Shown here one piece after another: positions 3,001-64,000 of a stretch of 64,000 nucleotides of DNA; the first letter of the stretch is position 1, and every line of letters starts with the position of its first letter. Source of the DNA: Elusimicrobiota bacterium (GTDB lineage: Bacteria; Elusimicrobiota; JBDRON01); NCBI GenBank assembly GCA_043810025.1, contig JBDRON010000056.1, positions 19,377 through 83,376 of the forward strand, written 5' to 3'. The translations under genes were made by a program, and so were the position numbers. The notes beneath the pieces are model-generated. The model was given only the letters and a program-made list of their open reading frames with translations. It was not told the origin of the DNA and did no database searches.

Positions 3001-4180
3001 AAAAGCCCTGCGTTATGTCAACTATGAAATACCGCGCCGTTTGACCGCTGAAGAATACAACCTCAGTCTGGTAGCCTACGCCGGCTATGTGCTTACCTCA
3101 TTTTCCCCGCAGGAGTTTTCCGCGGCAAAAAACGGACACACCGCCGCCAAATCCTGGGTGGTCTTCCTGGAACGGCATCTTCAGGCGCTGCCCCCCTTGG
3201 GGAAAGCTTATCTGGCCTACACCTATTGGCGGCTGGGTAATAAGGATCAAGCGAACAAAGTATTGGCTATGGCTTTAGACGGAGCGCGGGATGATTCTCT
3301 CACCGGTGTTTACTGGACACCGGAAAAATATTCCTGGGTCTGGTATGCGGATACGGTGGAAAAACATGCCTTCTTTTTGCGCGCCCTGCAGGAGCTGCGT
3401 CCGAAAGATAGCCGGATCCCGGGGATGGTGCGCTGGTTATTGTTCAGCCGGAAAGGAACTGTTTGGAAATCGACGAAAGCTTCCGTGGCCGCCGTTTTTT
3501 CTTTACTGGATTATCTTAACCAGCAAGGAGCGTTAAGCGGTGAGGAAAATTTTAAGATTAAATGGGGTGACCGTATCGACTCGGTAGTCGTCAAAGCCGA
3601 CGATTGGCTGGATAAACCTTTGCGCTGGCAGGAGAAAGGTTTTGAGATTACCCCGGATAAACAATCGGCAATCGTCGAGAAAAAAGGTCCGGGGGTGGCC
3701 TTCGCCAGTCTGCACTGGACCTATTCCACCGATCAGATACCGGAAGCTTCCACGCCCGGCTTGCTGGAACTAAAACGGATTTTTTACCGGCGGGTGAAAG
3801 AAGGCCGGGAGTATCATCTTAAACCGTTGGTTTCCGGTGATACTATCCACGTGGGCGACCAAATTGAAGTCCAGCTAAAAATCAACACCCGCAGCCGGTT
3901 CGAATATATGCACCTGAAAGATCCGAAAACCGCCGGTTTCGAAGCCGAAACCCTGCTCAGCGGCTGGAAATACGACCCGCTTTCCTTCTACGAGGAGCCG
4001 CGCGATTCGCTAACCAATTTTTTCTTAAGCCGGCTGCCCCACGGCGAATACATTCTGCGCTACCGCCTCAGACCAACCAAACCCGGCCTATACCGCGTCG
4101 GCGCCGCCACTCTGCAGTCGATGTACTCCCCGGAAATGACCGCCCACAGCGCCGGCTTTGTGATTAAGGTGGGGGAGTAA
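23..4180 (+). CDS. alpha-2-macroglobulin family protein (bacterial A2M, thioester-containing); 5' partial, ORF open to window start
   Basis: 1385-aa ORF running from the window edge; thioester-type motif CxEQ present (YPYHCVEQLL); very large multi-domain size; hydrophobic alpha/alpha-toroid-like region LAGLAEARRYG. Confidence 0.75.
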   Translation: MVRRITGGFKTLDNRRTVTISAQDPNYKEFFTQTVKLNELGSASVSLEIPQGRLLGRYTLNAQSSDGQFSNSSAINFSVEEYKRPEFELSLKPAEKVWKYDQPVEVKGSAKYYFGGAVPSAVIKYRIKRQSYIPWCYRYWFAENYTGSPQEMASGELKTDAEGNFSIPFTPTGGQGGYAGNIPEIARFVVEVEGRDAGGRTIQTEQTYQASRQAFYFAVQPQKGFYREKEKIGIETKLLTINDAPLAGKADFQAFVLANQPAKPLSESRHQSGGIWTPPLDLQLKDVPNAELVEEGEIKYGQDGQTIINLRSLPQGVYRIRLKSQDQWGGEVEQNKIFVVAKSVKEAVPVPAASVTLVEKDEYQVGRTARLLIGSALAGGRYWVEIWAGEYFLRSEFIDRGQPVQLIEIPVTEALKGGFTVRWFGVKDLDVYAGQTVIAVPWKEKKLTLSLEPFSKKLKPGEKINWGLRVKNFAGQPQKAEALVLMYDRSLEYYRTSQNPWLDNLYALKPQPYNYLNSVFDPPTIHLPITEGLLEKVLRSFRQPSPGPALPGLRTRRTWSQGYDLDSFANFGSEYKGKNNVMRKEMASVVLEDNKRDAEGRGIVKSSSLPDASGSAAGKPYAGALSKVEARKTFADTAFFKPQISTALDGRGKFSFTAPEQLTSWRIKMFAFTKDAQEGILVEEAQTQKELMVRLDLPRFFREKDQGTVTAIVHNESEVEQEGELLMEIRENKQLINEKLQLAAPQKHFKIKPHQLASFNWLVKIPAGVTNYQVKAAAVSKKLSDVEERELPILPSRQRLSESAFTVLSGDVSRKLAIVLKADPTRINETMVLQIDPQLALTILNTIPFLIEYPYHCVEQLLNKYVPLSIVNELYKKYPNIQKAVSKIPKRQTVTPDWEKDDPRRLLSLMETPWVWESEGRPAPWPLIDLLDPQIVENQKNNILEQLQSAQLSNGAFPWWPGGEADPYITLYVLAGLAEARRYGVEMPKQLVEKALRYVNYEIPRRLTAEEYNLSLVAYAGYVLTSFSPQEFSAAKNGHTAAKSWVVFLERHLQALPPLGKAYLAYTYWRLGNKDQANKVLAMALDGARDDSLTGVYWTPEKYSWVWYADTVEKHAFFLRALQELRPKDSRIPGMVRWLLFSRKGTVWKSTKASVAAVFSLLDYLNQQGALSGEENFKIKWGDRIDSVVVKADDWLDKPLRWQEKGFEITPDKQSAIVEKKGPGVAFASLHWTYSTDQIPEASTPGLLELKRIFYRRVKEGREYHLKPLVSGDTIHVGDQIEVQLKINTRSRFEYMHLKDPKTAGFEAETLLSGWKYDPLSFYEEPRDSLTNFFLSRLPHGEYILRYRLRPTKPGLYRVGAATLQSMYSPEMTAHSAGFVIKVGE

Positions 4181-6865: not shown

Positions 6866-6955
6866 AGGTCATGAGTCATGGGTTATGAGTTATGAGTTTA
6901 TAAAGAATAGAGTCTTTTAATCACAAGACACATGACTCATAACTTGTGACTTATT
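6866..6955. repeat. Family B long palindrome (tandem-heptamer arms + conserved AAAGAATAGAGTCTTTTAA centre), copy B1
   Basis: Arms GTCATGAGTCATGGGTTATGAGTTATGAG / CACAAGACACATGACTCATAACTTGTGAC; lies between nuoD and nuoH. Confidence 0.7.
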
Positions 6956-6982
6956 TTGGTAATTTAACAACCAAAGGTGATA

Positions 6983-9028: not shown

Positions 9029-9063
9029 GTTAGTTGTAGGGAACGGTCGCGACCGTTCCGCAT
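9029..9063. repeat. Family D palindrome GTTAGTTGTAGGGAACGGTCGCGACCGTTCCGC, copy D1
   Basis: Perfect 20-bp palindrome GGAACGGTCGCGACCGTTCC directly after the nuoJ stop. Confidence 0.65.
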
Positions 9064-9393: not shown

Positions 9394-9410
9394 ATCAACC
9401 GTATAATATT

Positions 9411-9505
9411 GGTCGTGAGTCATGAGTCTTGGGTTATGAGCTTGAAAGGAATCGATTCTTTTAGACTCAAGACTCATAACGCATGACTCAGGACTTGTAA
9501 CTTGC
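9411..9505. repeat. Family B palindrome, copy B2
   Basis: GGTCGTGAGTCATGAGTCTTGGGTTATGAGCTTGAAAGGAATCGATTCTTTTAGACTCAAGACTCATAACGCATGACTCAGGACTTG; between nuoK and nuoL. Confidence 0.7.
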
Positions 9506-11513: not shown

Positions 11514-11572
11514 GTAGGGCAGGGCTTTAGCTCTGCGTTTTTTAAAGATGCAAGCCTAAAGGCTTGCCCTAC
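11514..11572. repeat. Family C nested-hairpin element (GTAG...CTAC bounded), copy C1
   Basis: GTAGGGCAGGGCTTTAGCTCTGCGTTTTTTAAAGATGCAAGCCTAAAGGCTTGCCCTAC; outer stem GTAGGGCA/TGCCCTAC enclosing two inner hairpins; between nuoL and nuoM. Confidence 0.65.
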
Positions 11573-14527: not shown

Positions 14528-14650
14528 AGGAAATTAGAAGTTTGTTGAAGTGTTCCCCCTTTTGAAAGGGGGATGAAGGGGGATTTTAAAATATTGATAA
14601 AATCTCCCCTACCCCTCTTTTTAAAGAGGGAAAAAAACGTCACAGGTGTG
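14528..14650 (+). repeat. Family A triple-hairpin REP-like element, copy A1
   Basis: GAAATTAGAAGTTTGTTGAAGTGTT-CCCCCTTTTGAAAGGGGG-ATGAAGGGGGATTTT...AAATCTCCCCTA-CCCCTCTTTTTAAAGAGGG-AAAAAAACGTCACAG; three consecutive stem-loops; immediately downstream of nuoN. Confidence 0.7.
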
Positions 14651-15516: not shown

Positions 15517-15580
15517 TTGTAGGGAACGGTTTTTTAAAGAGGGAAAAAAACGTTACAGACAGGTAAAGTTCCGAGCGAAG
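15517..15580 (+). repeat. Composite repeat: Family D head (GTTGTAGGGAACGG) fused to a Family A 3' tail (TTAAAGAGGGAAAAAAACGTTACAGACAGGTAAAGTTCCGAGCG)
   Basis: The tail matches A1 positions about 14620-14665 almost base for base; the head matches D1/D2. Confidence 0.55.
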
Positions 15581-15684
15581 TGAGGACTAACTTAATTGAT
15601 AAATGAAGGCAAAAAAGCTTTTTTGACTAACTTGTGGATACTGTGGATAAGGTTGTGGATAACTATTACATACAAAAGAACACA

Positions 15685-15770
15685 GGTCATGAGTTGTGGG
15701 TCGTGGGTTGTGAGCTTAAAAGAATCGAGTCTTTTAATCTCAAGACTCATGACTCATAACCCATGACTTA
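15685..15770. repeat. Family B palindrome, copy B3
   Basis: GGTCATGAGTTGTGGGTCGTGGGTTGTGAGCTTAAAAGAATCGAGTCTTTTAATCTCAAGACTCATGACTCATAACCCATGACTTA; upstream of bamA. Confidence 0.7.
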
Positions 15771-15895
15771 TTTCGGGAATTTCGCAGGCAATCGCGGTTC
15801 TAGGGATCATAGTTCTGGTTTGACTTTTGCTGTAAAAATGGTAAGATAAATTAAACTAAACTATTATAAATTGGATTACAAGGAGTTTACTTAAG

Positions 15896-18229
15896 ATGAA
15901 AAAGCTACTGGTTTATTTTAACATAATTTGTTTTTTGTTTGGTCTTTTTCCGACCGCTGTCTTCGCCGAGACCGTCGATGTCTACACTGGAAAAAAAATC
16001 CGGGCAATAGAGATTAAGGGAAATAGAAATGTTAAGGAGAGCGCTATCCGGGAAAAAATGAAGTTGAGTAAAGGTGATTTCTATAATCAAGGAAGTGTCG
16101 ATGAAGATATTCAAAAAATTAATGAATTGGGTTTGTTCGACGAGGTTAAGGTTGATCTGGAAGAAGTGAAGAAAGGGGTGAAACTGATTTATTATTTGGT
16201 GGAAAAACCGATTATTAAAAAAATTGAGTTTAAGGGTAATAAAAAATTTCCTAACCGCCGGTTAAAAGAAAAAATTGCCAGTAAAGAAGAGGAGTCTTAT
16301 AACAAAACCAGAGTTGAAGATGATCTTGGCAAGCTGATCATTTTTTACAAAGATGAAGGTTATAGCGAGGTTAAAGTCGAAGCTTTTCCGGCTGTCGATG
16401 AAAAAACAAATCAAGCGGTGATAACCTTTTTTATTCGGGAAGGCAAACAGGTTTTAGTTGATAAAGTCCTTTTGAGCGGAACAAAAGATTTTAGCGCCAA
16501 GAAAGTGCTTAAAGGGATGAAACTGCGCAGGAAAAAGGTTTTTAAAGAAGATACTCTGCGGGCGGATATCAAGGAGATAGAAAGTTTTTATAAAAATCGC
16601 GGGTATTTGCAAGTGACGGTTGTCGAACCACAGATTACTTACAATAAGGAGCGGACAAAAGTCAGTATCGAAATAAAAGTTGTTGAGGGCAGGAAATTCA
16701 GGTTTGGAGCTATTACTTTTGAAGGGAGCAGTTTGTACCCGGAAAAAAAATTATTGACTAACCTTACCTTTAAACCCGGGCAGATTTTTTCCCAGCAGGA
16801 ACTGGACAAAAGTGTGGAAAATGTTCATCAGCTTTATTATAGCAAAGGATATCTGCGCTCGTTGGTGGAAGCTAAACAAGATGTGCAAGAGATTGCCGGT
16901 ATTTTAAATGTGGCCGTCAATATTACTGAGGGCGGGATTGTTTATATCGATCGGATTTATATTGAAGGCAATACCTTCACCAAAGATTATGTGCTCCGCC
17001 GGGAACTGCTGGTTAAGGAAGGGGATCCGTTTGATTTAACTAAAATTAAACGCAGTCAGGAAAAACTTTACAATTTGGGATTTTTAAAAGAGGTGTCGAT
17101 AGACATTCAAGAAACACCGGTTGAGGATAAGGCCGACTTGGCCATTGATATTAAAGAAGACAAGCCGGGAATTTTAACCATGGGCGCGGGCTATTCTTCC
17201 GTGGACCGGTTTTCCGGAACCTTGCAGGTTTCCCATGTCAATATGTTTGGCCTGGGCCAGCGTCTTAACCTGCTCTGGGAGTTCGGCCAGCGCAAACAGA
17301 ATTATGAAATCGGTTTTACTGAGCCCTGGATCTTCAGTAACCCGATTTATGCCGAAAGTCCTTCGGCTTTGTTTCGTTGGTTAAATCGCCATCAAACCAC
17401 CGCCGGTTTCGGTGTTTTTAACACGATTCGCAAAAGGCAGTATGGCACGGAGTCCGATGCTTATAAAGAACAGCGCCGGGGTGGAGATTTGCGCTTGGGC
17501 CGCAGTTTTACTGATTTCGTTTCGGGAAACCTTACATACTCTTATGAAGAAATAAAGCTATTTGATTCTATCGTGACCGATGTTAAACCTTCTCTGGCGG
17601 TTACCTCCAGCATTTCGTCCGGGTTATCCCGGGATAGCCGCGATAACATTTTTGATGCGGCCCGCGGGTCCCGAAATAGTGTTTCAGTGGAACTGGCCGG
17701 CGGTCCGGTTGGCGGGAATGTGCATTTCTACCGGCCGAGCGTTACCTCTTCCTGGTTTTTTCCGACCTTTTGGAAGTTTGTGTTTTCCACCAATTTGCGC
17801 TTGGGTCTGATTCGCTCTTTTCCACCATCATCAGAAATACCGGTCTATGAGCGGTACTATGTGGGTGGGGCGGATACGGTGCGCGGCTATGACTACCGCG
17901 GGCAAATCGGCCCTCAGGAAGGCGGCAATATCATGAGCGTGGTGAATGCTGAATACAAGTTTCCTTTTGTCGAAGAAGGCGGTCGGACAATATTGCAGGG
18001 AGCCTTCTTCTTTGATTTGGGCGGCGCCTGGCGGAACTTTCGGGATATAAGGTTAGCTCTGGGTAACGAAGAACTGAATTGGAAAGCCGGGGTGGGTTTC
18101 GGGATCCGGATTTTTGTGATGGCGGTATTCCCGATCAGGCTGGACTGGGGCTATGGTTTAAATCATCGCCGGGACATTCAAAAAGCCAGCCGTCACCAGT
18201 TCTACTTTACCATCGGCCAGGTGTTTTAA
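15896..18229 (+). CDS. bamA: outer membrane protein assembly factor BamA
   Basis: 777 aa; N-terminal signal peptide, repeated POTRA-like segments (IEFKGNKKF..., ITFEGSSLY..., IYIEGNTFT...); C-terminal beta-barrel ending ...FYFTIGQVF; followed by skp-lpxD. Confidence 0.9.
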   Translation: MKKLLVYFNIICFLFGLFPTAVFAETVDVYTGKKIRAIEIKGNRNVKESAIREKMKLSKGDFYNQGSVDEDIQKINELGLFDEVKVDLEEVKKGVKLIYYLVEKPIIKKIEFKGNKKFPNRRLKEKIASKEEESYNKTRVEDDLGKLIIFYKDEGYSEVKVEAFPAVDEKTNQAVITFFIREGKQVLVDKVLLSGTKDFSAKKVLKGMKLRRKKVFKEDTLRADIKEIESFYKNRGYLQVTVVEPQITYNKERTKVSIEIKVVEGRKFRFGAITFEGSSLYPEKKLLTNLTFKPGQIFSQQELDKSVENVHQLYYSKGYLRSLVEAKQDVQEIAGILNVAVNITEGGIVYIDRIYIEGNTFTKDYVLRRELLVKEGDPFDLTKIKRSQEKLYNLGFLKEVSIDIQETPVEDKADLAIDIKEDKPGILTMGAGYSSVDRFSGTLQVSHVNMFGLGQRLNLLWEFGQRKQNYEIGFTEPWIFSNPIYAESPSALFRWLNRHQTTAGFGVFNTIRKRQYGTESDAYKEQRRGGDLRLGRSFTDFVSGNLTYSYEEIKLFDSIVTDVKPSLAVTSSISSGLSRDSRDNIFDAARGSRNSVSVELAGGPVGGNVHFYRPSVTSSWFFPTFWKFVFSTNLRLGLIRSFPPSSEIPVYERYYVGGADTVRGYDYRGQIGPQEGGNIMSVVNAEYKFPFVEEGGRTILQGAFFFDLGGAWRNFRDIRLALGNEELNWKAGVGFGIRIFVMAVFPIRLDWGYGLNHRRDIQKASRHQFYFTIGQVF

Positions 18230-18232
18230 TAG

Positions 18233-18328
18233 TGCAAAACGCAAAGCGCAAAACGCAAAATGCAAAGTCAAAAGCATCGAGTCTTTAAAAGTCCTTAAGT
18301 TTTGCGCTTTGCGCATTGAGTTTTACGC
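18233..18328. repeat. Family B-type palindrome, copy B4 (arms built from GCAAAAC heptamers)
   Basis: TGCAAAACGCAAAGCGCAAAACGCAAAATGCAAAGTCAAAAGCATCGAGTCTTTAAAAGTCC...TTTTGCGCTTTGCGCATTGAGTTTTACGC; same centre as B1-3 but different arm heptamers. Confidence 0.65.
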
Positions 18329-18358
18329 TATTATGTTTGTTGGGGGGGAGTCAAAAAT

Positions 18359-23180: not shown

Positions 23181-23265
23181 GTTAGTTGTAGGGAACGGTC
23201 GTGACCGTTCCGCTTTTGTCATGTAACAGAAATATAAGTTGTAGGGAAAGCATATCTGCGTTCCC
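23181..23265. repeat. Family D element, copy D2 (two GTTGTAGGGA units)
   Basis: GTTAGTTGTAGGGAACGGTCGTGACCGTTCCGC...GTTGTAGGGAAAGCATATCTGCGTTCCC; downstream of lpxI. Confidence 0.6.
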
Positions 23266-24593: not shown

Positions 24594-25666
24594 AAACTTC
24601 TCCGATAAAACAATTACCAAACAATGACTATTTAATAAATCCTGGTGCTTCATTTGAAATGCATCTTTATAATACCGACATCAATACCGTAACCGAACTA
24701 GTTAATATTATGAAAAAAGGTGAGGAAGAAGGATCAGGAACTGGCGTTGTTAACTGTAAATTGTTGGAATTACTAGTAAAAAATAATGTTAGATGCCGTG
24801 AAATTGATTCTTATGTAAATGAATTTCGGCCACAATATATTCAAAATCTAAAAACATATTCTGGATTAAATGTTGACTGGCAGAGTATTAATGAAATTGA
24901 TATAAGTAGTATTCCAGAAGAAATCAGAAAAAAAGCAGTTGATGAGTTGCGCATAAAACCAGACACTAATATAGAGGTTTTGTTTAAACTTTATCCTTGT
25001 GATGATTCTGTGCCGATAGAAGTATTTAGGAAGTATCCCTTTAAAGTTATAGTAAAATATCTTAATGTTTGGGATCGGGGCAAAGAATTGAAAGTTATTC
25101 CTCTGGAACACCGAGATAGAAAAATTTACGAGAAAATGGTTGAATTGAATCTGTCTATGCAAGGGGAAGCAATTCCGCTTAAAGATATATTAGTGACTTT
25201 GAAATTATCTGAATTAAAGGAAATCGGTTTAAAGGTAAATACAGAGCCATCAAATAAGAAAGAAAAAGTTATTGAAAATTTACTGAGCAAAGAAGGTGTT
25301 GAAAAACAAATTCAAGGTAGTATTAATCTTAAAGACTATTTTAAACTTATTTCTATCGAACGAGAGTTTGGCTCCGATATATTCAGTAAATTAAATTCAT
25401 CCATTAAATATAATGAACTTAATGCAGACTTAATTGGGAGAACTTTTTTATTCTCTTATTACAATGATTCTAGGGATAATTCCTGGTCGAATCCAATATC
25501 TTCTGAACTAATCACAGGATATGAAATTTCAATGGTTTCCGATGCAAGATGTTGCCCTTACTGTAAAGATATGAAAGGAAAAAAGTTTGACAAAGTTAAT
25601 TGTCCTAAAATACCATTGCATTTGGCTTGTCGATGTGCGAAAGTCCCGCTAACAAAATATGGCTAA
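24590..25666 (+). CDS. hypothetical protein (ORF B) with SAP-like helix-extended-helix motif and C-terminal Mu-F/SPP1-gp7-like zinc-ribbon motif (CxYC...PLHxxCRC)
   Basis: 358 aa; LKDILVTLKLSELKEIGLKVNT...KKEKVIENLLSK resembles a SAP DNA-binding motif; C-terminus CCPYCKDMKGKKFDKVNCPKIPLHLACRCAKVPL resembles the conserved end of phage head-morphogenesis (Mu F) domains. Confidence 0.5.
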   Translation: MKTSPIKQLPNNDYLINPGASFEMHLYNTDINTVTELVNIMKKGEEEGSGTGVVNCKLLELLVKNNVRCREIDSYVNEFRPQYIQNLKTYSGLNVDWQSINEIDISSIPEEIRKKAVDELRIKPDTNIEVLFKLYPCDDSVPIEVFRKYPFKVIVKYLNVWDRGKELKVIPLEHRDRKIYEKMVELNLSMQGEAIPLKDILVTLKLSELKEIGLKVNTEPSNKKEKVIENLLSKEGVEKQIQGSINLKDYFKLISIEREFGSDIFSKLNSSIKYNELNADLIGRTFLFSYYNDSRDNSWSNPISSELITGYEISMVSDARCCPYCKDMKGKKFDKVNCPKIPLHLACRCAKVPLTKYG

Positions 25667-25702
25667 AGTATTTGAATAAAACACTGTATTAGGGGATTAA
25701 AT

Positions 25703-26155
25703 ATGTCGGGATCATTTTTATACATTGGAATTCATTTTATTTTTAGTACAAAAAATCGTGTGAACATAATTACTAGCGAAATAAAAGATAGGTTGTATTC
25801 CTATATTGGCGGAATAATAAAATCAATTAAAGGTATACCAATTGCTATAAATGGAATGCCTGATCATATCCATGTTTTTTGTATTGTATCACGGGAAATG
25901 ACCATTGCTGATTTTATGCGTATTGTTAAATCAAATTCATCAAAATGGTTGAATGAAACTTTTCCTGTTAAGCCAAAATTCCAATGGCAAGACGGATACG
26001 GTTCGTTTTCAGTCACTAAATCATCAGAAAATAAAATCATTGAATATGTAAAAAATCAAGAAGAACATCATAAACAAAAATCATTTCAGGATGAATTTAT
26101 TGAATATTTAAGATTGATGAAAATTGACTATGATGAAAGATATATATGGCAATAA
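25703..26155 (+). mobile_element. tnpA: IS200/IS605-family Y1 HUH transposase (TnpA) / REP-associated tyrosine transposase (RAYT)-like, solitary
   Basis: 150 aa; HUH motif MPDHIHVFCIV; C-terminal catalytic Tyr in EYVKNQEEHH (Y-x-x-NQ motif of IS200 TnpA/RAYT); no tnpB partner. Confidence 0.75.
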
Positions 26156-26400
26156 TACTCCGCCGCCCCGTTGGGGCTTATATTTTCATGGGTGATTATA
26201 GCGGGGATTACATCCCCGCCTATAATCCGCAATCCCTTCGGGATAATAAATTGAAAAAGATTGTAGTATGCTTTTATTTGTCCTGAAAGGACAACGGAAT
26301 ATAGGCGGGGGGCTTGCCCCCCGAAAATGAAATATTCCATGAACGATAAGCCCTGAAAGGGCGGAGGAAAAGCGCCCAAATTATTTATAAATTTTCAGTG
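26156..26400 (+). other. structured GC-rich hairpin cluster downstream of tnpA (possible IS end / REP-like hairpins / small RNA)
   Basis: Hairpins TATAGCGGGGATTACATCCCCGCCTATA (26195-26225), GTCCTGAAAGGAC, GGCGGGGGGCTTGCCCCCCG (about 26300-26322), GCCCTGAAAGGGC; the outer complement CTCCGCCGCCCC...GGGCGGAG frames the region. Confidence 0.45.
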
Positions 26401-26592
26401 TAATAAAAAGAGGTAAGCTATGGATTTCAAAATTTTATCTACTCACTCGTGGGGCGGAGATTTGACAGAAAAAAATTATTGGCCTAGAATCGGGGGAAAG
26501 TTTCCCTATTACGAAATTATCTGGTCGAAGGTTATAGCGCTCTTAACAAAGAGATCAGACAATTTACTTTTGGTTTAAAAAGGGGGGGTGTT

Positions 26593-27498
26593 ATGAAAAA
26601 TTTTTTTGAGAAAAATAAAATATTCTTGGGTATAATTATAGCCGGTTTGATGATTGCCGCAGCTATTTATTTTGGTTTAAATAAGCCGGCTGATAAAGAA
26701 AAATATTTATCATTATCGTCCTCGCCGTCTCCTGCCCAAAGTTTGGCGCCGGCTGAGGCTCTTGTCACTAAAGTTATCGATGGTGATACGATAATTGTTG
26801 AAGGCGGTTATAATGTCCGGCTTTTGGGTATTGATGCTGATGAGGCGGGTTATCCCTGTTACGAAGCAGCCAAAAAACGCTTAGAAGAATTGATTTTAAA
26901 TAAAACGGTGAGATTGGAAAAAGACCAAACCGATGTTGACCAATATAAAAGATATTTGAGGTATATTTTTCTTGACGACAAAAATATATGTTTAGAGTTG
27001 GTAAAAGAAGGCTTGGCAATTGCCAGATTTTATGAGCCGGATAGAAAATACAAAAACGAGATTGTTTCCGGCGAAAAAGAAGCGATTGAGAAAAAAGTTG
27101 GTTGCAAATGGTCCGCTTCCACCAATGTTTCGGCGGATAAATTATCTTACGAAAAAAACGAATTCTCCTATGAGAAATTAACCACGGGGAAGACCGGTTT
27201 AAAAGTAGTTGGCGCTTACCAATCAGGGAATTATTACGGAAGAGAAGTCATTGTGGAAGGAAAAGTAGTTGGCGCTTATCGCTCAAAAACAAATATAGTT
27301 TTCTTAAATTTTGATAAAACCTATCCCAATCAATATTTTGTCGGAGTTATTTTTAGTTCAGACCAGTATAAGTTTGTTGAGGCGCCGGAAAAATATTATG
27401 CGGGAAAAACCGTTAGAATCAAAGGAAAAATTAAGGAGTATCGCGGCAAACCGGAAATTATTATAAAAGACCCTTCCCAGATTGAGATAGGAAAATAA
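26593..27498 (+). CDS. membrane-anchored thermonuclease (SNase-like) with C-terminal OB-fold domain
   Basis: N-terminal TM; SNase core VIDGDTIIVEGGYNVRLLGIDADE...RYLRYIFLDDKN...; C-terminal OB-fold-like repeat (KVVGAY...KGKIKEYRGKPEIIIKD). Confidence 0.72.
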   Translation: MKNFFEKNKIFLGIIIAGLMIAAAIYFGLNKPADKEKYLSLSSSPSPAQSLAPAEALVTKVIDGDTIIVEGGYNVRLLGIDADEAGYPCYEAAKKRLEELILNKTVRLEKDQTDVDQYKRYLRYIFLDDKNICLELVKEGLAIARFYEPDRKYKNEIVSGEKEAIEKKVGCKWSASTNVSADKLSYEKNEFSYEKLTTGKTGLKVVGAYQSGNYYGREVIVEGKVVGAYRSKTNIVFLNFDKTYPNQYFVGVIFSSDQYKFVEAPEKYYAGKTVRIKGKIKEYRGKPEIIIKDPSQIEIGK

Positions 27499-27817: not shown

Positions 27818-27957
27818 AGAAATTTGAATGTTTGTTTTGCGTATATTCCCCCTTAAAAAAGGGGGACACAGGGGGATTTTGAAAATTAGAAATATTGTCT
27901 AAATCTCCCCTACCCCTCTTTTTAAAAGAGGGGAAAAAATACCACAGAACGAAACTC
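27818..27957 (+). repeat. Family A triple-hairpin element, copy A3 (inside the 29-bp IR pair)
   Basis: GAAATTTGAATGTTTGTTTTGCGTATATT-CCCCCTTAAAAAAGGGGG-ACACAGGGGGATTTTGAAAATTAGAAATATTGTCTAAATCTCCCCTA-CCCCTCTTTTTAAAAGAGGGG-AAAAAATACCACAG. Confidence 0.7.
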
Positions 27958-32162: not shown

Positions 32163-32383
32163 ACCGGTAACACCAGACCAGCCTCAACCTCGTCCCGATG
32201 CCCCTCTCCCCAGTAAGGGAAATTTTAAATGGGCTAATAATTTTGTTAATGGGTTAATAAATAGGGTAATATCGAAGTTGCTGCTTACCAAGAAAAAAAT
32301 TACTTTAATTGTCGTTAGTAGGGCAATTACACAACGTTGGTAGCCCAATAAATTGGGCAATTACTCTATTAAGGTAGACCACG

Positions 32384-35236: not shown

Positions 35237-35400
35237 GAATTTAAGAAACACTTCAGCCAGGGGAAGTCCGTGGGAATCGGACACTGCCCCGCAACGGTGA
35301 TTCCTTCCGCCATCAGGCGGATTGGATAAGTCCGGTCTACTGTCTGAAGCATAAATCCTAAAAAGTGTTTTTAGGATTGCCTGCGCGGGCGGGATGGGTT
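35237..35400 (+). promoter_or_regulatory. cobalamin (AdoCbl) riboswitch
   Basis: B12-box-like core ...AGGGGAAGTCCGTGGGAATCGGACACTGCCCCGCAACGGTGA... (the conserved ...GCCACTG... region appears as CACTGCC); 5' UTR of the cobO-btuFCD-cobCUTS operon. Confidence 0.75.
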
Positions 35401-36023: not shown

Positions 36024-36683
36024 ATGAGCAAAATAGTTTATTTAGTAAAAAGAAGTTTGTTGTTAAGTTTTGCGTTTTGCGCTTTGCACTTTACGCTTGT
36101 TTTCGCGGCTTCACCGCAAAGGATTGTCTCTTTGTCGCCTTCCGTAACGGAGATACTTTTTTTGCTTGGTTTGGGGGATAAAGTGGTCGGGGTCACCACT
36201 TCCTGCGATTATCCGCCGCTGGCCAAAGAAAAATTTAAAGTTGGTGATTTTTCCAATCCGAACCTGGAAAAAATTGTTGCGCTTCAACCGGATCTGGTTT
36301 TTGTTACCGACGGCATACAGGAGCCGCTGGCGCGGAAATTGAGGCAGTTTGGTTTAAGGGTGGAGGTGGTTGCCCCCCAGAATATTGAAGGGATTCTCCG
36401 CTCATTTGTTTCAATTGGTGAATCTACCGGAACAAGCGGGCCGGCGATGAGGTTGGTAAAAGAAATTCGCCGCAGGTTGAATAAGGTTGAGGTGAAAGTT
36501 GCCGCTGTTCCCCGGGAGAAAAGGCCGAAAATTTTTCTGGAGATTTGGCCTAAACCCTTGATGACGGTCGGCAAAGACTGTTTTGTTGACCTTGACCCGG
36601 ATTTATTGCTGCGCACCGGACCGCGTTTTGTCCAGGGGGTAGAAGATTTGTACCGGATTTTCTACCCGGATGATAAACCATGA
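36024..36683 (+). CDS. btuF: periplasmic cobalamin-binding protein (ABC substrate-binding, BtuF-like)
   Basis: Signal peptide, then PQRIVSLSPSVTEILFLLGLGDKVVGVT (BtuF/FecB family). Confidence 0.78.
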   Translation: MSKIVYLVKRSLLLSFAFCALHFTLVFAASPQRIVSLSPSVTEILFLLGLGDKVVGVTTSCDYPPLAKEKFKVGDFSNPNLEKIVALQPDLVFVTDGIQEPLARKLRQFGLRVEVVAPQNIEGILRSFVSIGESTGTSGPAMRLVKEIRRRLNKVEVKVAAVPREKRPKIFLEIWPKPLMTVGKDCFVDLDPDLLLRTGPRFVQGVEDLYRIFYPDDKP

Positions 36684-37378: not shown

Positions 37379-37459
37379 TAGCCATTTTTGTGGTAGCCGC
37401 AACCTTTAGGTGCGTTTCAAATTATGCGCAGGCTAAAGCCTGCGGCTACCAAGTGATAC

Positions 37460-37560
37460 TGATGTTATGTGTGTTCCCCTTTTAGAAAGGGGGATAAGGG
37501 GGATTTAGAAAATAATTACTAAATCTCCCCTAACCCCTCTTTATAAAAGAGGGGAATAAG
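37460..37560 (+). repeat. Family A triple-hairpin element, copy A4
   Basis: TGATGTTATGTGTGTT-CCCCTTTTAGAAAGGGGG-ATAAGGGGGATTTAGAAAATAATTACTAAATCTCCCCTAA-CCCCTCTTTATAAAAGAGGGG-AATAAG; between btuC and btuD. Confidence 0.7.
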
Positions 37561-37578
37561 AAATGAGGTGCCTAACTA

Positions 37579-39457: not shown

Positions 39458-40513
39458 ATGGAAAAAGTGGAAGAAATTGTAGTGAAAATTGCCGGGCTTG
39501 ATTCGGATCTGCTAAGGAGGACACAAGAAAGGTTGGATAATCTTACCAAGCCGCCGGGCAGTTTGGGAAGGCTGGAAGAGTTGGCCAGGATGATCGTCGG
39601 AATGACCGGAAAAGCTAACCCCTCTTTGGACAACAAGGTTATTTTTACCCTTGCTGCTGATCATGGAGCGGCGGAGGACGGGGTCAGCGCTTATCCCCGG
39701 GAAGTGACGGCTCAGATGGTTTATAATTTTTTAAATGGCGGGGCGGCGATCAATGTTTTGGCTAAGCATGCGGGGGCGAGGGTGGTGGTCGTGGATCTGG
39801 GAGTGGCCGTCGATTTAAAACCTCATCCGGAGTTAATGATTAAAAAAATAAATTATGGGACAAAAAACATGCGCCAGGGGCCGGCGATGAGCCGTGGGGA
39901 AGCGATAAAATCCATCGAAGCCGGGAAGGAAATTTTTCAGGTGGCGGCGGAGAAAGGGATTGATATCGCCGGGACCGGAGATATGGGCATTGGGAATACG
40001 ACGGCCAGCGCGGCTTTAACGGCTGTTTTTACCGGCCGGGCTGTGGAGGATGTTACCGGCCGCGGTACCGGCCTTGAGGATCAGGCTTTAAAAAACAAAG
40101 TTGCCTTTATTGCTGAGGCGATAGGCTTAAACAAGCCGGATAAAAACGATCCGTTGGATGTGCTGGCTAAACTGGGCGGGTTTGAGATCGGGGGGTTGGC
40201 CGGAATAATTTTGGCGGCTGCTTCCCGAAGGGTGCCGGTGGTGATTGATGGTTTTATTTCCGGGACGGCGGCTTTGCTGGCTTATCAGCTAGAGCCAAAA
40301 GTTAAGGATTATCTGATCGCTTCGCATTGTTCGGTAGAAAAGGGGCATAAAATAATTCTTGATTTTATTGGTTTAAAACCGTTTTTGGATTTGAATTTAA
40401 GGTTAGGCGAAGGAACGGGAGCGGCCTTGGGCATCAGTCTGGCCGAAGCTAGTATAAAAATATTAACCCAAATGGCCACCTTTGCCAAAGCCGGAGTTTC
40501 CACAAAAAAGTAG
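39458..40513 (+). CDS. cobT: nicotinate-nucleotide--dimethylbenzimidazole phosphoribosyltransferase
   Basis: CobT family (KPPGSLGRLEELA..., GIGNTTASAAL, ...ALGISLAEASIKIL); AAGGAG RBS before ATG 39458 (track start 39374 is an over-extension). Confidence 0.88.
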   Translation: MEKVEEIVVKIAGLDSDLLRRTQERLDNLTKPPGSLGRLEELARMIVGMTGKANPSLDNKVIFTLAADHGAAEDGVSAYPREVTAQMVYNFLNGGAAINVLAKHAGARVVVVDLGVAVDLKPHPELMIKKINYGTKNMRQGPAMSRGEAIKSIEAGKEIFQVAAEKGIDIAGTGDMGIGNTTASAALTAVFTGRAVEDVTGRGTGLEDQALKNKVAFIAEAIGLNKPDKNDPLDVLAKLGGFEIGGLAGIILAAASRRVPVVIDGFISGTAALLAYQLEPKVKDYLIASHCSVEKGHKIILDFIGLKPFLDLNLRLGEGTGAALGISLAEASIKILTQMATFAKAGVSTKK

Positions 40514-40516
40514 TAG

Positions 40517-40590
40517 TTGTGGGTCATGGGTCTTGAGCTCAAAAGACTCGATTCCTTTAAAATCACAACCCATGACACACAACTCAGAAC
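40517..40590. repeat. Family B palindrome, copy B5
   Basis: TTGTGGGTCATGGGTCTTGAGCTCAAAAGACTCGATTCCTTTAAAATCACAACCCATGACACACAACTCAGAAC; between cobT and cobS. Confidence 0.7.
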
Positions 40591-40616
40591 CATTACTTTA
40601 GGGAGCTTGTTTTATC

Positions 40617-43347: not shown

Positions 43348-43462
43348 TTTTGGGGGATCAGTTGTATTAAAATGTCCCCCTTTGATAAAGGGGGATTAAG
43401 GGGGTTGGGTTTTATATTTTTAAACTCCCCTAACCCCTCTTTAATAAAGAGGGGAATTAAAG
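43340..43462 (+). repeat. Family A triple-hairpin element, copy A5
   Basis: GAATTGATTTTGGGGGATCAGTTGTATTAAAATGT-CCCCCTTTGATAAAGGGGG-ATTAAGGGGGTTGGGTTTTATATTTTTAAACTCCCCTAA-CCCCTCTTTAATAAAGAGGGG-AATTAAAG. Confidence 0.7.
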
Positions 43463-43479
43463 CTCCGATAAATAAAAAT

Positions 43480-45995: not shown

Positions 45996-47132
45996 ATGCG
46001 CGAGCCAAAAATACTTTTTCTTTATATTTCGGTTAGTTCCGGCCATCAACAGGCGGCTGAATCAATTCAAAAAGCGATAAAAGAAATTGTCCCGGAAGCA
46101 AAGACTTTAGGGTTGGATTCCTTTAATTATGCCTATCCTTTTGTGGGCAAATTTATTGCCGGCACTTATCTGCAAATTGTTAAACGGACACCATTTCTTT
46201 GGGATTATCTTTACGATAACCCCGATGTGGTTACCGCCACGCAGGAAATTCGCGAGGTGTTAAACCGCCTTAATTCCAGGAAATTCAAAAAATTGCTTGC
46301 CTCGTTTCATCCTTCGGCCGTTGTTTGTACCCAGGCTGTTCCCTGTAGTGTGGTGGCTGCCGCGAAACGACACCGGAAGATTAACGTGCCGTTGATCGCC
46401 GTGATTACGGATTTTGCCGCCCATGCTTACTGGGTTTATAAAGAAGTCGATGCTTATGTCGTGGCTAATGAGAGTACCCGGCGGGAACTGATGAAAAAAG
46501 GCATCCCCGAAGAAAAAATTTATCTCTTTGGCATCCCGATCAATCCGGTGTTTAATCAGCAGGTCGGAAAAGAAGACGCCCGGCTCAGTTTGGGGTTTAA
46601 ACCCAATTTGCCGGTCTTATTGGTAATGGGCGGCAGTCAAGGGCTGGGGCCGATCGAGAGTATACTCTCCGCCCTGGATTGGATATCCATTCCTTTTCAG
46701 GTGGCGGTAATTACCGGACTGAATGAAAAATTGCGGCGTTCTTTAAAAAAAGATTTTGCCAAAAGTATTCATCGGTTTCACATTTTTGGTTATATCGATG
46801 GGATTGACAAGTTTATGGAAGCGGCGGATATTTTGATTACCAAACCCGGTGGATTAACGTCTTCAGAGGCCTTGGCAAAAGGTTTGCCGATGATTATTGT
46901 CAATCCGATACCCGGTCAGGAGGAAAGAAACAGCAGTTATTTAATTAAACATGGTGTTGCTGAACGCGCGGATAATCTTGAAGAATTGGCTCATTATGTA
47001 AGTGATTTTTTTTCTCATCCGGTAAAACTGTCCCGGATGCGCCATCAAGCCCTCTCCATGGCCCAGCCTGATGCGGCTTATAATACGGCTTTATTGGTTT
47101 TGAAACAAATCGGCTGGCCGACAATAGTGTAA
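45996..47132 (+). CDS. glycosyltransferase family 28, MGDG-synthase/UgtP-like (diacylglycerol glycosyltransferase)
   Basis: N-terminal KILFLYISVSSGHQQAAESI (MGDG_synth domain signature) and C-terminal GT-B fold (LVMGGSQG..., ITKPGGLTSSEALAKGLPMIIVNPIPGQEERN). Confidence 0.75.
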   Translation: MREPKILFLYISVSSGHQQAAESIQKAIKEIVPEAKTLGLDSFNYAYPFVGKFIAGTYLQIVKRTPFLWDYLYDNPDVVTATQEIREVLNRLNSRKFKKLLASFHPSAVVCTQAVPCSVVAAAKRHRKINVPLIAVITDFAAHAYWVYKEVDAYVVANESTRRELMKKGIPEEKIYLFGIPINPVFNQQVGKEDARLSLGFKPNLPVLLVMGGSQGLGPIESILSALDWISIPFQVAVITGLNEKLRRSLKKDFAKSIHRFHIFGYIDGIDKFMEAADILITKPGGLTSSEALAKGLPMIIVNPIPGQEERNSSYLIKHGVAERADNLEELAHYVSDFFSHPVKLSRMRHQALSMAQPDAAYNTALLVLKQIGWPTIV

Positions 47133-47190
47133 AACGCAAAGCGCAAAACTTAAAGTCAAAAGATAAAAGAATCAAGTTAGTCGCTTTCGG
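47129..47190. repeat. half Family B element (GCAAAAC-type arm + AAAAGAATCAAG centre, right arm missing), copy B8
   Basis: GTAAAACGCAAAGCGCAAAACTTAAAGTCAAAAGATAAAAGAATCAAGTTAGTCGC, abutting Family A copy A6. Confidence 0.5.
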
Positions 47191-47204
47191 CGCTGACTTT
47201 TAAA

Positions 47205-47340
47205 ATTTCCTTCTTCTTTTGTTCCCCTCTTTTATAAAGAGGGGTTAGGGGAGATTTGGTAATTATTATTGTCTAAATCCCCCTTATCCCCCTTTAAAAA
47301 AGGGGGAAATTAGATTTTTGCTACACATTGAATTTCCTTA
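47205..47340 (-). repeat. Family A triple-hairpin element, copy A6 (reverse orientation)
   Basis: Reverse complement reads GGAAATTCAATGTGTAGCAAAAATCTAATTT-CCCCCTTTTTTAAAGGGGG-ATAAGGGGGATTTAGACAATAATAATTACCAAATCTCCCCTAA-CCCCTCTTTATAAAAGAGGGG-AACAAAAG. Confidence 0.7.
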
Positions 47341-52023: not shown

Positions 52024-52082
52024 TGTAGGGCAAGCCTTTAGGCTTGCGTTTCTAAAACCGCAGGGCTAAAGCCCTGCCCTAC
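52024..52082. repeat. Family C nested-hairpin element, copy C2 (approximately the reverse complement of C1)
   Basis: GTAGGGCAAGCCTTTAGGCTTGCGTTTCTAAAACCGCAGGGCTAAAGCCCTGCCCTAC. Confidence 0.65.
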
Positions 52083-60408: not shown

Positions 60409-60535
60409 GAATTCCCTTCCCCTTAAGGCTGGGTTTCCCCCTTTTTAAAGGGGGATCAAGGGGGATTTTACGACGATAAAAATCCTCCCTAACCCTCCTT
60501 TACAAAGGAGGGAATAACTAAAAAAACCGCGTTTT
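60408..60535 (+). repeat. Family A triple-hairpin element, copy A7 (compensatory stem-3 variant)
   Basis: ...TTT-CCCCCTTTTTAAAGGGGG-ATCAAGGGGGATTTTACGACGATAAAAATCCTCCCTAA-CCCTCCTTTACAAAGGAGGG-AATAACT; stem 3 reads CCCTCCTTT/AAAGGAGGG here versus CCCCTCTTT/AAAGAGGGG elsewhere. Confidence 0.7.
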
Positions 60536-63310: not shown

Positions 63311-63408
63311 AGTCGTAGTCTTGAGCCATGGGTCTTGAGTCTTGAGTCTTGAGTTTAAAAGAATCGATTCCTTTAAACTCAGAACCCATGACACATAACG
63401 CATGACCC
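63311..63408. repeat. Family B palindrome, copy B6
   Basis: GTCGTAGTCTTGAGCCATGGGTCTTGAGTCTTGAGTCTTGAGTTTAAAAGAATCGATTCCTTTAAACTCAGAACCCATGACACATAACGCATGACC; between the HK stop and the RR start within a minus-strand operon. Confidence 0.7.
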
Positions 63409-63413
63409 GTTAG

Positions 63414-64000
63414 TTATTCCCTTGTTATCGGTAATTCAATAATAAATTGCGCTCCACCCGACGGATTGTTTTGAGCAAAAATATTACCGCCGTGTTCTTT
63501 GATTATCCCGTAGCTGACACTTAAGCCCAAACCGGTATTTTTTTCTTTGGTGGTGAAAAAAGGATTAAATATTTTTGGCAGAATTTCTTTAGGAATACCT
63601 TCTCCGGTGTCAGAAAATTCAATAATGATCCGTCCTTCCTTGATGCCGGTTTTTACGCTAATCTGTTTGGCCGGCTTATTGCAGGCCGACAGCGCCTGGT
63701 GCGCGTTGTTTAAGAGATTAAAAAAAGCCTGTTGTAGTTTATTTTCGTCAACCATTAGATAGATATCTCGATCATATTGACGGATTAACTCAATATTGGA
63801 CAATTTCAATTCGTATTCTCTTATTTTAAGAACTGTTTCCAGGCATTTGTTGATACTGCACAACCTTTTTTCTGATTTGTAACTGCGGGTAAAAGTGACA
63901 AGGTTTTCAATAATTTTTTTACAACGCAAGGCATTCTCTTTTATTTGCAGCAATATCTTGTCTCGTTCTTCAACGGGGGCTCGTTCGATTATTTGTGAAA
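63414..64000 (-). CDS. sensor histidine kinase, C-terminal part (HATPase_c); 5' end lies beyond the window
   Basis: N-box LLNNAHQAL, G-boxes DTGEGIP, GLGLSVSYGIIKEHGG; frame still open at position 64000. Confidence 0.75.
   Translation of the reverse strand, partial: SQIIERAPVEERDKILLQIKENALRCKKIIENLVTFTRSYKSEKRLCSINKCLETVLKIREYELKLSNIELIRQYDRDIYLMVDENKLQQAFFNLLNNAHQALSACNKPAKQISVKTGIKEGRIIIEFSDTGEGIPKEILPKIFNPFFTTKEKNTGLGLSVSYGIIKEHGGNIFAQNNPSGGAQFIIELPITRE

Follow-up and report, generated by a model that had tools for sequence, protein, structure and literature searches.

The window, a 64-kb stretch of DNA from an Elusimicrobiota bacterium that we analyzed as a whole, carries short GTAG-footed repeats in the gaps between its genes. 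Three of the elements are inverted dimers (C1, C2, and C3), and the others are single units of a second family, D. All seven sites are extragenic and lie in gaps between open reading frames with Pfam-supported products: between nuoJ and nuoK, between nuoL and nuoM, after a pantothenate kinase gene, after lpxI, between the FecCD and ABC ATPase genes, and between a NUDIX gene and a ParA-like gene. The window also encodes one Y1 transposase, which we refer to as TnpA. The features discussed below are as follows.

9036 to 9059, + strand: D1, single unit GTAG-GGAACGGTCGCGACCGTTCC with a TTAGTT leader at 9030 to 9035, intergenic between nuoJ and nuoK
11514 to 11572, no single strand: C1, foot-outward (REPIN-like) dimer, intergenic between nuoL and nuoM
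11514 to 11536, + strand: left unit of C1, GTAGGGCAGGGCTTTAGCTCTGC, with one stem mismatch
11550 to 11572, - strand: right unit of C1, GTAGGGCAAGCCTTTAGGCTTGC, separated from the left unit by a 13-nt spacer
15519 to 15529, + strand: D3, truncated unit GTAGGGAACGG, 3′ of the pantothenate kinase gene
23188 to 23211, + strand: D2a, single unit GTAG-GGAACGGTCGTGACCGTTCC, 3′ of lpxI
23241 to 23265, + strand: D2b, variant unit GTAGGGAAAGCATATCTGCGTTCCC, in the same orientation as D2a and 53 nt after it
25703 to 26155, + strand: TnpA (150 aa), the only Y1 transposase in the window, probably of the TnpA-Y1 subclass 1.2 type
26156 to 26375, no single strand: modules flanking TnpA, a right-end module at 26156 to 26260 and a left-end-like inverted copy at 26262 to 26375
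37393 to 37449, no single strand: C3, dimer with the variant foot GTAGCCGCA, intergenic between the FecCD permease and ABC ATPase genes
37393 to 37414, + strand: left unit of C3, with a decayed stem that has lost one stem base
37427 to 37449, - strand: right unit of C3, GTAGCCGCAGGCTTTAGCCTGCG
52025 to 52082, no single strand: C2, the C1 dimer flipped, intergenic between a NUDIX gene and a ParA/MinD-like gene
52025 to 52047, + strand: AGC-type unit of C2
52060 to 52082, - strand: GGG-type unit of C2, 12-nt spacer between the two units

An Rfam scan of the window placed no known RNA family over C or D and identified a single element, an AdoCbl (B12) riboswitch at 35238 to 35379 on the + strand (53.1 bits; gathering score, 50); the gene set downstream of it comprises, among others, the FecCD-type permease and the ABC ATPase. 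A tRNA scan of the window found none.

Anatomy of the C and D units

The C unit is 23 nt long and follows the pattern GTAGGGCA-NNN-CTTTAG-nnn-TGC, and a C dimer is an inverted pair of such units with the GTAG feet facing outward. C1 reads GTAGGGCA-GGG-CTTTAG-CTC-TGC, then a 13-nt spacer, then the reverse complement of GTAGGGCA-AGC-CTTTAG-GCT-TGC, and C2 carries the same GGG and AGC units in reversed order. As the initial annotation had it, C2 is approximately the reverse complement of C1, with ~90% identity over 59 nt, the 12- to 13-nt spacer included. Because the two elements have this spacer in common, they are copies of one dimer and not independent pairings of single units. The dimer is thus itself the copied unit, as in REPINs, here with two copies only, and the spacers of 12 to 13 nt in C1, C2, and C3 likewise correspond to the short spacer between the inverted REPs of a REPIN.

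Several details of the earlier description can be refined. The boundaries given for C1 were exact, while those of C2 began one base too early (at 52024; the element starts at 52025). Both elements fit the hairpin form proposed for them, with one mismatch in the left hairpin of C1 (GCAGGGC/GCTCTGC), and two inverted 23-nt units describe them better than a nested palindrome does. The third dimer, C3, had been overlooked; it came to light in a search for TT(T/C)A-loop hairpins, and its loops are CTTTAG.

The D units are single GTAG-footed hairpins, every one on the + strand. D1 and D2a are near-identical over ~35 nt (9030 to 9061 and 23182 to 23213), including the common TTAGTT leader, and yield the consensus GTAG-GGAACGGTCG[C/T]GACCGTTCC. 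D3 stops after GGAACGG, at the point where a copy of another repeat family starts (TTTTTAAAGAGGG...). The D copies in the window end in ...GACCGTTCCGC and have no terminal CTAC, so the earlier statement that both families end in CTAC applies to C only.

The window thus holds nine units in 64 kb, six in the three dimers and three full or variant D units, plus the truncated one. The units are 23 to 25 nt long and start with GTAG, which stands unpaired 0 to 1 nt before the stem, and the stem variants found in the window (GGG, AGC, and CAGG) all pair. These repeats are real and not a product of chance. The sequence GTAGGGCA occurs five times in the window against 0.94 expected, and none of 100 shuffles reaches five; the match at 32318 is followed by no matching hairpin and was excluded as a unit. 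By itself, the hexamer GTAGGG shows no enrichment (17 observed, 17.2 expected), and the signal therefore lies in the foot together with the hairpin. Hairpins that combine a GTAG foot, a perfect 7-bp stem, and a TTTA loop number four in the window and zero in 100 first-order Markov simulations. The dimers fold as single-stranded DNA with z scores of -4.3 and -5.6; in the predicted lowest-energy fold the left arm pairs with the right arm in one long imperfect hairpin, and the alternative is two separate hairpins. In a literature search, GTAGGGCA turned up solely in unrelated primers and aptamers.

Other repeats share the intergenic space of the window. A separate family of long palindromes is present at 6871 to 6959, 9405 to 9503, 15682 to 15776, 40509 to 40599, and 63311 to 63415, with arms made of heptamer runs (GTCATGA, GTTGTGG, and GTCTTGA types) on either side of a TTAAAAGAATCGA(T/G)TC core; comparable runs adjoin REPs in Brocadiales and Stahlbacteria loci (L106 and L092). 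An intergenic G5/C5 hairpin family (TTCCCCCTTTTGAAAGGGGGA and CCCCTCTTTATAAAAGAGGGG joined by a link of ~30 nt) occupies 14545 to 14637, 27838 to 27942, 37466 to 37563, 43367 to 43463, 47212 to 47316, and 60427 to 60521, and motifs of this type come after REPs in loci L010 and L044. Two G5/C5 copies contain CCCCTAC, on the hairpin side opposite to that expected of a REP foot. The CCCCTAC-CCCTCTTTTTAAAGAGGG family (14589, 27890, and others) was accordingly rejected as a REP, its GTAGGG being on the minus strand and on the wrong hairpin side, and is a different family. A further small family, rich in GCAAAACGCAAAGCGCAAAAC-type repeats, appears in both orientations at 18228 to 18329, 36056 to 36097, and 47123 to 47206.

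Distribution of the C unit and its association with RAYT genes

Far from being unique to these loci, the C unit is widespread. We scanned 185,579 species genomes with GTAGGGCANNNCTTTAGNNNTGC, a pattern of 17 fixed bases for which ~70 chance matches are expectable, and obtained at least 118 loci from at least ~80 assemblies (counted by accession prefix), all of them MAGs. Among the matches listed, MAGs named for a dozen or more phylum-level groups carry the C unit. These hosts are Acidobacteriota (including Vicinamibacterales and Terriglobia), anammox Planctomycetota (Scalindua, Jettenia, and Brocadiaceae), Nitrospirota, Nitrospinota, WOR-3, Stahlbacteria, Thermodesulfobacteriota and other delta-type MAGs, Desantisbacteria, Firestonebacteria, Zixiibacteriota, Ignavibacteria, Elusimicrobia, and a few others. 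Two Nitrospinota loci (L044 and L071) have exactly the GGG and AGC pair of the window. A blastn comparison of the window with the at least 118 REP loci found no close relative among the matches listed.

The six free stem positions are fully complementary in 143 of the 160 listed units, against 2.5 expected, which excludes chance for the scan set; the remaining 17 units are one mismatch off, and the 160 units display 16 different stem triplets. A third of the 160 units (52) are accompanied within 60 nt by a foot-outward partner conforming to a strict partner pattern; the median spacer is 11 nt, and in 50 of these 52 dimers the partner has a different triplet (for example, AGG with ACC or AAC, and GGG with GAC or AGC). 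The base immediately preceding the foot (-1) is a pyrimidine in 134 of 157 units, and the base at -2 is A or T in 128. The differing arms and the pyrimidine at -1 together suggest that perfect long palindromes are avoided and that the sequence recognized or cleaved extends to W-Y-GTAG. The scan set was chosen on foot and loop, so that their conservation within it reflects selection, and only a set of loci anchored on RAYT genes speaks to the conservation of these two parts.

A motif screen (HUH followed by Y..NP) of the at least 118 listed loci identified one open reading frame, at 3544 to 4074 of locus L062 from an Acidobacteriota MAG. Its 177-aa product scores 98 bits against the NCBIfam REP_Tyr_transpos model (cut-off, 80) and has E. 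coli TnpA-REP (4er8) as its best PDB match. A GTAGGGCAGAGCTTTAGCTCTGC unit stands 11 nt before the start codon, and inverted units overlap and come after the stop codon, which is a classical REPtron arrangement. Four homologues of this protein, retrieved by exact protein look-up, are all bracketed likewise by REPs, of the sequences GTAGGGCATGAC..., GTAGGGCACCCC..., GTAGGCCGGGTC... (46% protein identity), and GTGGGGCGGGGC... (42%). The REP sequence drifts with the divergence of the RAYT protein, and the CTTTAG loop is kept.

Eight more RAYT loci have foot-outward flanks (L129/L130, L131, L132, L133, L196, L214/L215 from Stahlbacteria, and L216/L217 from Brocadia), and in nine loci read in detail, identical or near-identical C units directly flank a canonical class-2 RAYT gene. 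The low-GC RAYT loci carry exactly the unit format of the window: L196 has GTAGGGCAAGGC / GTAGGGCAACCC, and L214/L215 and L216/L217 have GTAGGGCAAGGCTTTAGCCTTGC paired with GCAAACCT[A/G]AAGGTTTGCCCTAC directly on both sides of the RAYT gene. For the D units, the link to a RAYT consists of a single locus, L205, where a tandem run of the D foot and stem (GTAGGGAACGGTC, 1112 to 1190) ends in a TTCA-loop hairpin and adjoins a class-2 RAYT gene. Another D relative, at 3504 to 3531 of L119, is a double-footed single hairpin, GTAGGGAACGGTCGAGACCGTTCCCTAC (GTAG...CTAC), on a contig that also carries a homologue of the window's TnpA with 66% identity.

The RAYT-anchored set comprises 80 metagenome loci collected by protein alignment alone, with repeat sequence playing no part in the choice, and it therefore independently shows foot and loop to be the constant parts of the unit. 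A GT[AG]G-footed hairpin with a TT.. loop lies within 260 nt of the RAYT gene in 64 of the 80 loci and on both sides in 40 of the 80, compared with 2 of 40 control stretches located 900 nt or more from it. The loops are mainly TTCA (87) and TTTA (69), and the feet mostly face away from the RAYT gene (52 versus 18 upstream and 46 versus 20 downstream). The same unit type as in the window, which itself contains no REPtron, flanks RAYT genes in these 64 loci and at L062, L129 to L133, L196, and L214 to L217.

This RAYT family is large, with 6413 proteins at E values of at most 1e-15 among 8000 candidates scored, and its named members come from Omnitrophota, Saganbacteria, Margulisbacteria, WOR-3, Stahlbacteria, Brocadia, Acidobacteriota, and delta-type MAGs. 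The family profile matches 4er8 at E = 2.5e-15 and retains the W-Q...E-(H/R)...R positions, which are listed for E. coli as contacting GTAG (Quentin et al., PMC6006769). Judged by motif alone (DH[LA]H, WQ, and YIxENP, in proteins of 155 to 180 aa), the family appears closest to subclass 2.5 in Table 1 of that study, a subclass associated with short REPs (PMC6006769).

Origin of the repeats and the role of the window's TnpA

We consider C1, C2, C3, and the D units to be non-autonomous GTAG-footed REP elements, with C in the form of REPIN-like dimers, whose cognate RAYT is encoded outside the window or has since been lost, and we place the probability of this reading at roughly 0.8. Their resemblance to classical GTAG REPs, as initially proposed, extends to the foot, the short covarying stem, the extragenic site, the foot-outward dimers, and the presence of the C unit beside canonical RAYT genes in other genomes. 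Each unit is a single-strand hairpin whose 5′ GTAG(G) foot lies at the base of a 7- to 9-bp stem, with C-G closing the TT(T/C)A loop. By analogy with E. coli TnpA-REP, a class-2 Y1 HUH enzyme (RAYT) would bind the folded hairpin and read the GTAG foot, and it would cut and rejoin single-stranded DNA at the REP as in E. coli, whereby whole dimers would be copied into intergenic DNA. The pairing of unit and RAYT seen in other lineages probably holds in this organism as well, and the elements may still be mobile in its genome. No class-2 RAYT is encoded within the 64-kb window.

The units could instead be kept mainly as structural signals in RNA or DNA, that is, as stabilizers of mRNA 3′ ends, attenuators, or weak terminators between co-directional genes, with transposase-driven spread being irrelevant today. 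All units do lie in gaps downstream of + strand genes, two of these gaps are inside the nuo operon, a terminator scan with lax settings flags D2a and the two hairpins of C1, and REPs act in this manner in E. coli (PMC3733652). However, across the 160 listed units a T-rich sequence is no consistent feature of the spacers and 3′ flanks, and an RNA role alone explains neither the GTAG foot nor the pyrimidine bias at -1 nor the tight flanking of RAYT genes. Intrinsic termination as the main function was discarded, its support coming from the lax scan and the T-tracts not being conserved. We regard a predominantly structural role as unlikely, and it is in any case compatible with the REP/RAYT explanation and not exclusive of it. 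Their position inside operons makes a secondary effect at the RNA level possible, both on the nuo transcript and on the other transcripts that carry them.

The initial annotation named C and D as the most likely substrates of the window's TnpA, which it took to be RAYT-like. TnpA is the sole Y1 HUH enzyme in the window, its gene is single and has no tnpB partner, JGI calls its homologues "REP element-mobilizing transposase RayT" (although this is a generic COG name), and a D-type unit lies 6.5 kb from the 66%-identical homologue in L119. The protein itself points elsewhere. It matches Pfam Y1_Tnp, is identical to MFH1259245.1 from an Elusimicrobiota MAG, and bears the motifs DHIH, WQ, and YVKNQEEHH, the last being of the Y---Q--HH and not the Y---NP form. 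It reaches 21 bits against the RAYT model NF047646 (cut-off, 80) and passes the IS200 model NF033573 with 69 bits (cut-off, 55), and its closest solved relatives are the TnpA proteins of ISDra2 (Deinococcus) and IS608, with 4er8 absent among the matches. In an ungapped extension of the alignment from WQ, the positions equivalent to E. coli E100, H101, and R104 would be S, F, and T. By motif, length, and copy number (single in the window), TnpA is best assigned to subclass 1.2 (DH[IV]H, WQ, Y---Q--HH, ~148 aa, low copy). Subclass 1.2 is described as low in copy number, with no REP association reported and generally without IS200-type ends (PMC6006769).

Neither flank of the TnpA gene (25560 to 25702 and 26156 to 26600) contains a C or D unit, and the closest, D2, is 2.4 kb upstream, an ordinary distance for nine units in 64 kb. 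The gene is accompanied instead by modules of ~100 nt, each with three small tetraloop hairpins and an ATAG 5′ of the middle hairpin, which have no relation to the C and D units. The window has no upstream module, and a left-end-like copy is present 3′ of the right end. Homologues in L119 (66% identity), L122 (55%), L218, and L219 are bracketed by the same modules as inverted ends, with covarying stems and with no GTAG units beside them; L218 is Algoriphagus ratkowskyi, which has two tandem TnpA genes. The modules of these homologues are located as follows.

L119: 9885 to 10000 and 10450 to 10562
L122: 1088 to 1201, 1650 to 1762, and 1790 to 1905
L218: flanks of 396 to 848 and of 1501 to 1953
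L219: flanks of 1501 to 1953

A three-hairpin module conserved around TnpA in five lineages indicates that this enzyme has its own DNA partners, without a GTAG foot. Conversely, tblastn of TnpA against the at least 118 REP loci found no homologue among the matches listed, and the same repeat type flanks the other enzyme family. With the signature, the profile score, the absence of a flanking unit, the separate modules, and the absence of homologues from the REP loci all in agreement, the proposed link between C/D and TnpA is not supported; we disfavor it and judge it very improbable.

Two further observations concern TnpA relatives. The bracketing modules occur with genes of the subclass 1.2 type, which in the published description has no REPs and, as a rule, no IS200-type ends (PMC6006769). 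In a type I restriction-modification operon, a 49%-identical subclass 1.2 TnpA (L123, 10001 to 10453) is flanked by hsdS and hsdR, with three GATACAGAGCCGAGG...CCTCGG repeats upstream and the hsdR start 13 nt downstream. A scan for TnpA relatives in viral contigs found none.

In another reading, the genome would have no class-2 RAYT, and its GTAG REPINs would be mobilized in trans by the subclass 1.2 TnpA, now or until recently. We give this scenario scant credence; if true, it would provide the first substrate for the orphan subclass 1.2 and imply that one GTAG hairpin is recognized by Y1 enzymes of two very different kinds. That C and D are chance palindromes in AT-rich intergenic DNA is already refuted. 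The hexamer GTAGGG does occur at its expected frequency, but the GTAGGGCA count and the GTAG-footed TTTA hairpins are matched in none of the shuffles or simulations, the copies are near-identical over 35 to 59 nt, and the C unit recurs in at least ~80 other assemblies.

Relation to known REP systems

We conclude that C and D are ordinary GTAG-footed REPs and REPINs in a new lineage and no new kind of system. The format of a GTAG(G) foot, a short stem, and a CTTYAG loop was formerly documented mainly in gammaproteobacteria, and its range now takes in many uncultivated lineages, among them Elusimicrobiota, Acidobacteriota, anammox Planctomycetota, Nitrospinota, Nitrospirota, WOR-3, Stahlbacteria, Desulfobacterota-type MAGs, and others. 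The near constancy of foot and loop, set against a freely covarying stem, points to the bases that are read by the enzyme. The case also carries a warning for annotation: a nearby Y1 transposase is not necessarily the partner of a repeat, and repeat format and enzyme subclass must match.

The closest published counterparts come from Nunvar et al. (2010, PMC2817692), who reported short CTTYAG-loop REPs of the GTAG class, namely, GTAGGGTGGGCTTYAGCCCACC in H. influenzae (with its variable base, GTAGGGTGGGCTT[C/T]AGCCCACC) and GTAGGTCGGCCTTCAGGCCGAC in Thioalkalivibrio. Like the units described here, these have a GTAGG(G) foot at the base of a G+C-rich stem of 6 to 8 bp, a four-base TT(T/C)A loop closed by C-G, and an associated RAYT gene. 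The window-type units differ in their stem (GCAxxxC), in their uncultivated nonproteobacterial hosts, and in that C elements are heterodimers of two stem variants. GTAG-footed REPs are typically present in more than 100 copies per genome (Nunvar 2010; Di Nocera 2013).

With the REP/BIME elements and TnpA-REP of E. coli (4er8; Messing et al. 2012, PMC3479197; Ton-Hoang et al.), the repeats share the GTAG foot, the single-stranded DNA hairpin, and inverted pairs of two subtypes (Y with Z2 in E. coli; GGG with AGC and AGG with ACC here). In both systems the RAYT gene is bracketed by its own REPs and the W-Q-E-(H/R)-R positions are conserved. The E. coli REPs (subclass 2.2), however, are longer and bulged, and the RAYT family found here differs from TnpA-REP in its DH[LA]H, WQ, and YIxENP motifs and its length of 155 to 180 aa.

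The C dimers also resemble the REPINs of Pseudomonas fluorescens (Bertels and Rainey 2011, PMC3116915), in which two inverted REPs with a short spacer are copied as one. The arms of C differ systematically in their stem triplet, however, and so do not form the near-perfect long palindrome. As far as described features allow a comparison, the GTAG repeats of Di Nocera et al. (2013, PMC3733652; see also PMC6006769) are alike in having their GTAG termini on the outside (HH type), in lying between co-directional genes, and in falling into stem subfamilies with complementary changes. The "double foot" REPs of the same reports (PMC3733652 and PMC6006769), finally, have a counterpart in the D relative of L119, which likewise bears GTAG...CTAC on one hairpin.
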